From sequence record PP400779: 64,000 nucleotides of DNA; one strand, given 5' to 3'. The notes under the pieces are model-generated. The model did no database searches. It was not told the origin of the DNA and was given only the letters and a program-made list of their open reading frames with translations. Both the position numbers and the translations under genes were made by a program. The DNA comes from Escherichia phage JM17. Below are positions 52,424 through 56,059 of the stretch, in pieces; positions within the stretch are counted from its first letter, which is position 1, and every line of letters begins with the position of its first letter.

Positions 52424-52975
52424 TTACTTAAAGATATTTATAATCGCTTTGATAATAGATTTGTTTTCAAGGTCAGGGAATTTAGGGAATTCGCCGCCAA
52501 GATGTTCATGTTTTTCTAAAAGGGCAAAGAATTTTTTGAGCTCTTTAAATTTTCGTTTTTCTTCTCTATTAGCAACCTCTGCGTCAATAAGAGAACTTAA
52601 AACACTGAATAATTTATAGAGTTCATGAATTTTCTTATCACGTTGAACTACGCGTTTATATGCTTCATCTTCCTTCCACCCGTCGTCGGTCCAAATGTCA
52701 AATTCACCAGGTTCTTCTGTAGTAACATTTTGAAGAGCACCTGGAGTGTCAATAACAATTTTTTGCTTATCATAAGTCCATACTGTTTTTCCACGATGGT
52801 CTTCAACATATACCCATTCTTTTTCGCGTTCATCAAATACAACAGCATAGCCTTCTTTAGGGTCTAAAGGTTTTTTAGATGTCGAGTGAGCCGGAAGACC
52901 GAGGCCTTTAACCGGTTTGTAATTTTCTTCTTTGTAAAATTCTTTAGTGTCAAAATAATAATGATATATTTTCAT
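52424..52975 (-). CDS. 38: gp38 (T4-type tail-fibre assembly protein)
   Basis: 183 aa, same length as T4 gp38; follows gene 37; split-SD hairpin in its initiation region. Confidence 0.7.
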   Translation of the reverse strand: MKIYHYYFDTKEFYKEENYKPVKGLGLPAHSTSKKPLDPKEGYAVVFDEREKEWVYVEDHRGKTVWTYDKQKIVIDTPGALQNVTTEEPGEFDIWTDDGWKEDEAYKRVVQRDKKIHELYKLFSVLSSLIDAEVANREEKRKFKELKKFFALLEKHEHLGGEFPKFPDLENKSIIKAIINIFK

Positions 52976-53005
52976 ATTTAGAAGGGGCCGAAGCCCCTCT
53001 CCTTA
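52976..53005 (-). promoter_or_regulatory. translation initiation region of gene 38 with UUCG hairpin between SD and AUG
   Basis: minus strand reads taaggaga-ggggc-ttcg-gcccc-ttctaaat-ATG; SD about 23 nt from AUG unless hairpin forms. Confidence 0.55.
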
Positions 53006-56000
53006 TGCTAAACGAACGATATAGTTAAAAGCAATGTTTTTAACCGTGTTTTCTGTATTACCTGTACTATTTACAGTGATAGTATGACCATGCGAGCCAA
53101 TTGCTACCGAGTGAGTATGAGCACCAATACCTACAGTATGTGTATGGGCACCAATACCTACAGTATGCGCGTGGTTACCCGTAGAGCTAGTAGTACCAGA
53201 CCAAGAGTGTGTATGGTTACCTTCTGTAGATGACTTTGCAATATATTGGCTTGAACCAGGCACGACACCGTTGCTTAGGCCAAAACCAACAACCTGGTTT
53301 CCACTAATTAGAGTAGACCCATTAGGAAATATCCCTGTTGGTTGATTATTAGGACCCCTTGGACCGGTTTGTGAGTGCTGGTGGTTACCTGCTGCACCAG
53401 TAGTACCGCTTACTGTATGGTTATGGTTACCTGTTGTATTGCTAGTCTTCGTACCATAATCAAAGCTTGAAGAGGTTTTAGTACCATAATCAAAACTTGA
53501 TGTGTTTTTAGTACCCAAATCTGTGCTTGATGCACTTGCACTATGGCTATGTGACTTAACACCATCTGCTTCTGTACTTAATACAGCACGCCCAGATGGT
53601 TTACCCTTGATAGTTTGACCACGCATATCCGGAATAGTACCAGTAGGATATGCAACAGCCAATTTTGGGTATGCAGACTTATCAAAAGTCTGTCCTTCCA
53701 TAATAGCGTAACCTTCAGGAGGTGTATCAGTAGGCCAAGGAATCGGAGCACCAATTGGGTAACTCGACACAATATCTGTCTTAAGGTTATTTATTGTGGT
53801 ATTCAAGTTAGCAAAATTACCAGTGCCGCCAGTGATGTTACCATCAGTACCGAATTGAGCATTACCAACTTTTAATGGTTTTGAAAAAAGAACATCGTCG
53901 GTTCTAAATGCAACCCCATGACCTAATGCATTACTATATAAGTTAAGTTCATCTGAACTACCACTCCCATTACCAACGAACCATTTAACCGTATTAGCTT
54001 TTTTACCCTGAATATAAACAGGGTTGGTCGATGAAACCGAGTTAATAATAAGCGCGGCGTTATTAGCGTTAATTGTGATAGCTTGCCCTGATGTTGTTCT
54101 ACTAGTTTCTACTTTAAATCTTCCACCGCCGATATCAACATCATGATCCATGGAAACTTTACCATCACTTAATGTAATATAGAACGGACGTAAATTAGAA
54201 ATACCACCTGATTCACCAGCATTCTGTGGAGTTGGAATAATATAAAGCTTATCTTCAGAACGACGGAAAATAGCCCCGTATTCAGCATTCCAAATTCTTA
54301 ATGCATCAGCTGTTCCGCCGATTTTAACTTGCCCGGTAATAGAAGAACCACCTTGGACAAACAAACCGTTAGACATAGTAACATTGCCACCAAAAGAACC
54401 TGTACCGGAGGCACTTATATTACCAAGGCCTATGATATGGCCTGTTTCGACAGTTCCGTTAAATTTAAAGTTAACCGGACCTACTGTTTCACCAGAAGCC
54501 GGGTTGGTACGTTGAGCATAAAAATAATAACCATGCCCGTCAGCTAATTCAAAAACTGTTTCACGAGTACGATCGCCAGATGCGTTAAATGAATTACCCC
54601 ACGCTTTAATAGATACATAACTTTTATTCTGACCTGCGCGAGTACCACCAGCCCACAGTATAGTTTTAGTGCCATCTGTTGTTGTAGGAGCGTCAAGTTG
54701 AATACCGTCGGGTCTAGCACCAGTAAGAACTAATCCATTATCAAATTTAATTCTTTGTATTGAAGATACTGTTCCGTCGGCATAAAACTGTACATTATTA
54801 GAACCAGTTACCAGTTTCAAAATACCCGGGTTAACTTCCATACCTTCTTGTGTATTAATGTTGGTTTGGCCTTTACCGCGGAAATAGTGGGACATTTTCC
54901 CGCCTGAGTTATAGCCAATATGCGTCTGGCCGTCTCCAGCAGTGTTTTCATCAGCTTGTGTTTGAACCGATAAAAACGCGGCGTTGGTTCCAGGCATAAT
55001 CCATGTTGTACCTTGGTCCTCGGAACGACCAAAAATCGCTTTACGGGTACTACGGAAACTATAAGGAGTAATAGATGCGACAGAATTCCCTGAACCAACT
55101 AAATCATAAACACCGGTTTTTTTGTATGATAGCCCCGTCCCGTTATCGCCTAGAGCTAAATAAACACCGAATCCTAAAGCGGCACCATTACCATAGTCGC
55201 TTGACGGGTATCCTGCAGTCACGGTCCCGATGGCTATGCTATTGCGGACGATCATTCGGCCGTCATTACGAATACCATATAATTTAAATGATGGTGTATT
55301 ACCAGTCCACCAAGAAACTTCATCAGCCTGGTCTGTTTGTGCAGTAACAATTTCATGATACATTGTACCACCGGATTTAGCTCGCACTTTACGAAGATAG
55401 TTTACACCATTCGTTTCACCGGTTCCAGGATAAACATAGTTAACCAAAGATTGTGAATCATATTGTCCAAATGATTTAGAATCATGATTAATTAAATTAA
55501 CACTAATAGTTGGTGTACTAATAGAAGTTAAAGCAGTTAATTTGCGTGCCTGGAAGATACCGCCATCAGTAGAAATGAAATGAAATTCTGAATTTTGAGC
55601 TTCCGCAGCGGTTCCTTGACGAACACGCATTGTAATTACGCCTTCATTTTCAGACTGCGGGTTTGAATATAAAACGCCACGTTCTGAGCCATTTGTATTT
55701 TCAAACCAAAGATGGGCCTTTGCAGTATCATTTATTGCTCTTGTATAAAATGAACCGGATGTTGATCTGAATACTGTAGCAGAAACAATATTACTTGCCG
55801 TAATAGTACCACTTGTAGAAAAATTTCCAAAGTTGTTTATTGGTCCATTGACGCGTAAAGTTCCATCAATAGTTACATTTCCATCAATTTGACCGCCTTT
55901 AGCAATACCTAGATCAATGATATTTCCTGTATCATCTTTAGTAAAAATTGTTCTATCTTTTAAGTTTATAGCCAATTCACCTTCGGCTAATACTGAAGCA

Positions 56001-56059
56001 GCAGGACGTGCACCTGCGGTTTTGCTTCTTTTAAATTGTATTTGTTTTAAAGTAGCCAT
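53003..56059 (-). CDS. 37: distal long tail fibre subunit gp37 (receptor-binding)
   Basis: 1018 aa; Gly/Ser/Thr-rich beta composition; C-terminal His-box repeats (GAHTHT); synteny 34-35-36-37-38. Confidence 0.85.
53093..53174 (-). repeat. tandem 27-nt repeats encoding His-box units near the gp37 C-terminus
   Basis: units gcaccaatacctacagtatgtgtatgg / gcaccaatacctacagtatgcgcgtgg plus a degenerate copy; encode VGIGAHTHT-type repeats. Confidence 0.7.

Follow-up and report, generated by a model that had tools for sequence, protein, structure and literature searches.

The three 27-nt units near the C-terminus of gp37 of Escherichia phage JM17 very probably encode consecutive iron-binding structural rungs of the gp37 needle, which is an ordinary and already described feature. 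The iron-binding HxH rungs of the T4-type tip are textbook knowledge, and the form with eight motifs deduced here is already known from the TuIa and TuIb gene 37 records, from lambda Stf and from dozens of T-even phages that have been sequenced. In the window, i.e., the complete stretch of 64,000 nt analyzed from sequence record PP400779, which represents a Mosigvirus with about 97% nucleotide identity to the mar005P1 group across 20 kb, the following features are relevant, listed in the order of the minus strand from gene 37 to gene 38.

53003..56059, minus strand: gene 37, distal subunit of the long tail fibre, 1018 aa, T4 type in which the C-terminus itself is the adhesin tip (open reading frame, Pfam)
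53609..53752, minus strand: phage tail collar domain forming the tip module's base, aa 770-817 (PF07484, 2XGF alignment)
53543..53551, minus strand: HxH-1, KSHSHS, H837/H839, predicted first iron site of the outgoing strand, corresponding to T4 H883/H885 (2XGF alignment; invariant in the homologue alignment)
53438..53527, minus strand: outgoing-strand spacer of three 10-aa units compared to two in T4, the last two forming a 30-nt tandem repeat (Tandem Repeats Finder, 2XGF alignment)
53417..53425, minus strand: HxH-2, GNHNHT, H879/H881, corresponding to T4 H915/H917 (2XGF and homologue alignments)
53375..53383, minus strand: HxH-3, GNHQHS, H893/H895, corresponding to T4 H929/H931 (2XGF alignment)
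53216..53374, minus strand: variable head (receptor-contacting) segment, aa 896-948, between HxH-3 and HxH-4 (poor, gapped 2XGF alignment)
53207..53215, minus strand: HxH-4, GNHTHS, H949/H951, predicted first iron site of the returning strand, corresponding to T4 H966/H968 (2XGF alignment)
53165..53173, minus strand: HxH-5, GNHAHT, H963/H965, corresponding to T4 H980/H982 (2XGF alignment)
53081..53161, minus strand: whole 27-nt array of three in-frame units with HxH-6, HxH-7 and HxH-8, returning strand (Tandem Repeats Finder, translation, shuffles)
53135..53161, minus strand: unit U1, VGIGAHTHT, aa 967-975 (gene 37 translation)
53108..53134, minus strand: unit U2, VGIGAHTHS, aa 976-984 (gene 37 translation)
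53081..53107, minus strand: unit U3, VAIGSHGHT, aa 985-993 (gene 37 translation)
53006..53080, minus strand: conserved C-terminal tail, by T4 homology leading back to the collar (identical to T4 in the 2XGF alignment)
52424..52975, minus strand: gene 38, T4-type chaperone for assembly of the tail fibre, 183 aa (PF02413 Caudo_TAP)

Assignment of the large reading frame to gene 37, which had been made in an earlier note from the letters alone, is borne out by its C-terminal 265 aa matching the crystallized T4 gp37 tip (PDB 2XGF, T4 residues 785-1026) at a phmmer E-value of 5.3e-82, with query residues 2-265 aligned to chain residues 17-242 and collar, needle and head all covered. Moreover, the collar domain (PF07484, E = 3.9e-12, 46.4 bits versus a cutoff of 24) is located directly before the needle, a gp37_trimer domain (Pfam) was found at aa 669-744, and the gene following gene 37 encodes a gp38 chaperone whose match to PF02413 Caudo_TAP passes the threshold (E = 7.3e-5, 23.4 bits, cutoff 22.1). 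This directly downstream gene 38 product belongs to the Tfa/gp38 chaperone family and is not a T2-type adhesin; the next reading frame is the holin gene t. Folding of gp37 requires gp38 (PMC6957217; PMC3004832). Overall, gene 37 of the window is closest to that of the Mosigvirus JM10 (93.5% nucleotide identity), and its tip shows 97% protein identity to that of G2469. Over its whole length, gp37 is composed in mosaic fashion of segments resembling JM10 and segments resembling G2469, with aa 639-751 diverged from both. For the tip (aa 752-1018), identity to JM10 and G2469 stays between 90 and 100% in all windows of 40 residues.

The claim that three tandem units of 27 nt are located near the gp37 C-terminus is confirmed by Tandem Repeats Finder (TRF), which reports positions 53097-53167 with a period of 27, 2.6 copies, 84% matches and a score of 86. 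An array does exist where it had been placed before (53093-53174), but that span starts inside the preceding HAHT and misses the final 12 nt of U3. Likewise, the units had been listed in plus-strand order, whereas gene 37 is encoded on the minus strand and the order in the protein is VGIGAHTHT, VGIGAHTHS and VAIGSHGHT. Nucleotide identity amounts to 81% between U1 and U2, 70% between U1 and U3 and 63% between U2 and U3, and the longest exact repeat at an offset of 27 is CATACTGTAGGTATTGGTGC with 20 nt. At the same offset, the best 27-nt window shows 25 matches, equaled by none of 2000 codon shuffles of gene 37, the maxima of which averaged 15.8 and did not exceed 21. As the C-terminal region of gp37 is rich in glycine, threonine, serine and histidine, a compositional artefact might be suspected, i.e., a low-complexity Gly/His/Thr stretch without repeat structure. 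However, such a chance origin has practically no probability and was ruled out by codon shuffling, the TRF score and the spacing of exactly nine residues together with the invariance of the glycine and both histidines of every unit among 44 aligned homologues.

Besides the tandem units, all four further motifs proposed earlier (GNHNHT, GNHQHS, GNHTHS, and GNHAHT) were found in the translation, and an additional one that had been overlooked, KSHSHS with H837/H839, brings the total to eight HxH, all falling within the last 182 residues of gp37. According to the 2XGF alignment, each of the seven T4 motifs, which by counting along this alignment are H883/885, H915/917, H929/931, H966/968, H980/982, H989/991 and H998/1000, has a counterpart in the window, which adds one more. 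In T4, seven iron atoms are lined up along the needle and coordinated by HxH histidines, and H929 and H931, the two histidines tested, are essential (PMC6957217). The earlier idea that the boxes coordinate metal ions is supported by this motif-for-motif homology of the gp37 HxH boxes to the iron-coordinating histidines of T4, from which both iron binding and a trimeric fold can be predicted for the phage studied here.

Based on the T4 structure, each chain of the trimer would contribute one HxH to a site in which six histidines bind a single iron ion on the fibre axis, and with eight HxH, eight irons would be expected here compared to seven in T4. The needle would be a thin six-stranded beta shaft in the long tail fibre's tip, arising because the fibre chain doubles back at the head (PMC12609058). 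Leaving the collar, the chain would run to the receptor-binding head and return, with the tandem units on the way back forming three successive rungs. Opposite to them, the outgoing strand would be devoid of histidines and bear 10-aa xFDYGTKxxx units instead. The conserved C-terminal tail would finally reach the collar, in T4 the domain D10 that takes in residues 1010-1026 (PMC6957217). The 27-nt repeat would be of old origin and preserved on the level of the protein, and its role would be to hold the fibre together and not to recognize the receptor. The description of the units as lying at the receptor-binding tip applies insofar as they are part of the crystallized tip fragment, but they are not in the receptor-contacting head; this placement can be only loose because the units align to T4 H980-H1000, which are furthest from the head. 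Residues determining host range and receptor contact in T4 map to the head (PMC6957217). Judging from the alignment, the tandem units, situated on the returning strand within that half of the shaft which is next to the collar, would be structural rungs rather than receptor-contact residues. Modelling of aa 754-1018 as a monomer with AF2, based on the alignment of 44 sequences, gave a result too poor for assigning the strand register (mean pLDDT of 58.9), with block means between 44 and 59 across the needle and the collar, at 75 to 85, as the only well-predicted part.

Outside the head, the alignment has two gaps in T4 relative to the window, comprising 9 aa on the returning strand (one VGIGAHTHT) and 10 aa on the outgoing strand (one SSFDYGTKT). 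The latter belongs to the second tandem array of the tip, detected by TRF at 53451-53515 with a period of 30, 2.2 copies and a score of 102 and encoding SSFDYGTKT twice; at an offset of 30, it shows 26 of 30 matches, again not reached in any of 2000 shuffles. Accordingly, successive HxH motifs are spaced by 42, 14, 56, 14, 9, 9 and 9 residues in the window, compared to 32, 14, 37, 14, 9 and 9 in T4. The T4 spacer of 32 residues can be written as 7+9+9+7, and the 46 residues between the first and the last site of the outgoing strand would fit the needle length of about 150 Å (PMC3004832). Homologues drawn from the protein database, IMG/VR and annotated phage records yielded 137 distinct needle modules. 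In 136 of them, the number of 9-residue steps on the returning strand matches the outgoing gap between the first two HxH, and the 137 modules are distributed as follows.

First gap of 31-32 residues, two 9-residue steps: 63 distinct needle modules
First gap of 41-42 residues, three 9-residue steps: 72 distinct needle modules
First gap of 52 residues, four 9-residue steps: 1 distinct needle module
First gap of 42 residues, two 9-residue steps: 1 module, the exception (metagenome contig L001)

The same pairing fits Felixounavirus Shy (gap of 34, two steps) and Henu12 (gap of 54, four steps), both bearing Ounavirinae fibres with a different C-terminus and lying outside the count of 137 modules. 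When counting the outgoing GxK units directly, 102 of 106 modules have as many of them as they have 9-aa steps, and three of the four mismatches are due to diverged motifs within a spacer of the right length. Similarly, the 14-residue HxH pairs beside the head are present on both strands or on neither, the latter being exemplified by Salmonella phage Lv5cm with spacings of 42, 34, 9, 9 and 9. From these sequence spacings, it can be inferred that each returning 9-aa His unit has a single 10-aa unit of the outgoing strand as its partner. In T4- and lambda-type needles, the half next to the collar might then be a stack of two-part rungs, each made of an outgoing 10-aa xFDYGTKxxx and a returning 9-aa xxIGxHxHx iron unit, with n = 2, 3 or 4 and with both arrays obliged to change together, a generalization put forward tentatively and with chances slightly short of even. 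With one extra unit of each kind relative to T4, the needle of the window would be one rung longer, corresponding to the form in TuIa, TuIb and lambda Stf. However, as no more than about 100 codons separate the arrays, linkage may account for part of the coupling. This pairing rule between the arrays is the only, and mildly, new point of the analysis; an explicit 10-aa/9-aa rule was not found stated in the literature surveyed.

Among characterized fibres, the T4 tip shares with the window the collar, all seven HxH, the C-terminal 26 residues and a gp38 chaperone gene downstream, whereas the window has one more 9-aa His unit, one more 10-aa FDYGTK unit and eight instead of seven HxH. Its head is longer than and unrelated to that of T4, with the distance between HxH-3 and HxH-4 being 56 versus 37 and the head segment exceeding the T4 one by 19 aa, and it is 95 to 100% identical to the heads of JM10 and G2469. 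In relatives having the 14-residue HxH pair, this distance ranges from 33 to 56. The needle architecture of the window is shared by TuIa (X55190) and TuIb (X55191), which show the spacing of 42, 14, X, 14, 9, 9 and 9, eight HxH, three returning units and two FDYGTK units. This architecture is also found in the Tequatrovirus and Mosigvirus strains teqhad, O157 typing phage 3, JK45, G2469 and JM10, and the window differs from the TuIa/TuIb group solely by its head segment and by a small number of Thr/Ser positions in the units. The side fibre protein Stf of lambda (orf-314) has an eight-HxH needle as well, with spacings of 42, 14, 48, 14, 9, 9 and 9 and about 64% identity to the tip of the window, and is likewise followed by an assembly protein of the Tfa family. 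In contrast, it is part of the side fibre of a siphovirus, the N-terminal shaft of which is unrelated, and there is more divergence among its units (VGIGAHQHP, VVIGAHAHS, and FSIGSHGHT; 67% nucleotide identity between U1 and U2). Collar, needle and a head with HxH rungs are also shared with Felixounavirus and other Ounavirinae tips, as known from cryo-EM of Bas63 (PMC12609058), though at 30 to 38% identity only; in these tips, the array is preceded and followed by an extra HxH, and the C-terminus differs. Eight HxH have also been described for the T-even-like fibre protein gp267 of CkP1 (PMC10175313), and it has been suggested that the number of HxH may scale with needle length (PMC12609058).

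The number of units among relatives is not invariant, with two returning-strand units in T4, three in the window, TuIa, TuIb and lambda Stf and four in a Salmonella prophage and Henu12, but it is constant among the close relatives examined. Three units are present in all of JM10, G2469 and mar009P5 as well as in teqhad, O157 typing phage 3, JK45 and ECCR664. In the family with a TuIa/teqhad-type head, all four members with examined sequence possess three units, and the tip span is 792 nt in each of about 58 cultured phages with this head type, which is 9 aa longer than in contig L001. The latter, the 10.5-kb metagenome contig IMGVR_UViG_3300030021_000020 with a TuIa head, three outgoing but two returning units, is the sole variant found, whereas no copy-number polymorphism was detected in JM10, G2469 and mar009P5. 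In L001, the unit left over combines U1 and U2 of the TuIb/teqhad sequence as a hybrid, which looks like the pattern expected of a one-unit deletion between direct repeats, with assembly collapse as the alternative. A protein search with the L001 tip revealed no further forms with a single-unit deletion among the matches listed, all of which were shorter than 470 aa, so that full-length T-even gp37 proteins lie outside this sample. As a side observation, metagenome assembly can at any rate yield a mismatched three/two form, which counts against a strict pairing of the arrays.

In the earlier note, the repeats had been regarded as substrates for slippage or recombination potentially varying repeat number and host range. 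What stands of this idea is that the in-frame units share a 20-nt exact direct repeat at a spacing of 27 nt, that natural forms with two, three and four units exist, and that L001 combines a TuIa head, one unit fewer and a hybrid unit as left after direct-repeat deletion, although assembly collapse could account for this contig as well. As summarized in PMC7002106, duplications in T4 gene 37 extend the host range to Yersinia (Tetart 1996), a precedent for the idea that a repeat-mediated change towards the C-terminus of gp37 affects the host range. A duplication of such a kind, with a variable segment bounded by GxHxH, is absent from the gp37 of the window, where the head segment is single-copy and the 27-nt and 30-nt structural units are the only tandem arrays at the tip. 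The T4 duplications are said to have their end points within GxHxH His boxes, reportedly first noticed on sequencing of the TuIa and TuIb genes, and to span a variable segment, not a single 9-aa unit. Frequent slippage is further opposed by the codons, as U1 and U2 share identical codons at six of nine positions versus 4.0 expected from gene 37 codon usage (P = 0.16) and the 30-nt repeat at five of nine versus 4.2 (P = 0.41), hence giving no significant excess indicative of a recent duplication of U1/U2. Within genomes, U1-U2 identity is 0.715 compared to 0.705 between genomes (permutation P = 0.14), and there is accordingly no significant concerted evolution by gene conversion of these two units. 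The rare codon ATA in both units of JK45 and GTG in both units of ECCR664 are anecdotal hints of conversion. Constancy of three units in JM10, G2469 and mar009P5 and of the tip length in the approximately 58 phages with TuIa/teqhad-type heads is at variance with frequent slipping, too, and so is the coupling to the other-strand repeat in 136 of 137 modules, since a slip in one array alone would bring the strands out of register. Receptors are OmpF for TuIa and OmpC for TuIb, T4 and lambda Stf. As TuIa and TuIb agree in the number of units but not in their heads, whereas the counts of T4 and lambda Stf differ despite their common use of OmpC, specificity would reside in the head and not in the number of rungs. 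Considering also that the units are far from the head, where the T4 host-range residues map (PMC6957217), a contingency repeat that often slips or recombines and thereby changes host range is quite improbable.

A somewhat better but still rather unlikely explanation is that the units are kept for recombination, with the conserved His-box DNA flanking the variable head mainly serving as homology for head swaps between phages and prophages and the tandem copies adding to this homology. The tip module is indeed common to Straboviridae, lambda, Ounavirinae and many prophages, being matched by 646 phage records and 2335 protein clusters at E ≤ 1e-10. In addition, heads with about 80% identity are found on needles of different length, i.e., with seven as well as eight HxH, the gp37 of the window is itself the mosaic described above, and a T4- and lambda-based family of receptor-binding proteins has been reported to diverge only in the specificity region (PMC9659904). 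However, no breakpoint was located at the units, identity of aa 752-1018 to JM10 and G2469 is continuously high, and recombination leaves unexplained the invariant histidines and the strict 9-residue spacing, both of which are explained by a structural role. Serving as a recombination anchor is compatible with the units being needle rungs and is to be considered a side effect of them, not a rival function.

For the needle rungs as the preferred explanation, the pairing of the two arrays is one useful by-product, spanning several phage families. If true, it would provide a simple design rule for needle length, according to which both repeats are to be added or removed together in engineered or predicted tips, and a change in the 27-nt array alone would be likelier to impair folding than to affect the host range. 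With two-part rungs, products of a slip in a single array such as L001 would be rare intermediates or tolerated variants with altered tip geometry. In GenBank records of the teqhad group, a repeat_region is annotated within gene 37, which in teqhad is located near the His units.

Gene 37 carries a second in-frame tandem repeat in addition to the 27-nt His units:

53451-53515, minus strand: tandem repeat of period 30 within gene 37, covering amino acids 854-872 and comprising two copies of SSFDYGTKT.

Compared to gene 37 of the window, T4 possesses one copy fewer of this 30-nt SSFDYGTKT repeat, and across relatives its copy number equals that of the 27-nt His units. Among the 137 distinct needle modules, the only mismatch between outgoing- and returning-strand unit numbers is found in the metagenome contig IMGVR_UViG_3300030021_000020 (L001, locus 1501-2265), which combines a TuIa-type head and three outgoing-strand units with only two returning-strand His units, a U1/U2 hybrid being the remaining His unit. 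Either this contig has lost one unit by natural deletion, or its assembly has collapsed here.

Four-rung needles are present in a Salmonella Infantis prophage (L095, STM4200-like) and in Shigella phage Henu12 (L097), in each of which the outgoing strand carries four FDxGxK units and the returning strand makes four 9-residue steps. This widens the natural rung range to n = 2-4. For teqhad, teqdroes and teqskov, the GenBank entries contain a repeat_region feature inside gene 37, in teqhad (MN895434.1, L084) at locus 932-994 and close to the His-unit array; hence, the repeat has already been flagged by annotation pipelines.

Further upstream in gene 37, amino acids 639-751 of gp37 (53807-54145, minus strand), overlapping the gp37_trimer domain, show only 25-68% identity to JM10 and to G2469, whereas the flanks are 93-100% identical to one or both of these relatives. 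This stretch is probably a swapped shaft module.

At the other end of the gene, the 27-nt gap separating the stop codon of gene 37 from the start codon of gene 38 is filled by a hairpin:

52980-53002, minus strand: GC-rich hairpin GGGGC-TTCG-GCCCC in the gap between genes 37 and 38.

At the equivalent site, a putative terminator is annotated in the G2469 record.
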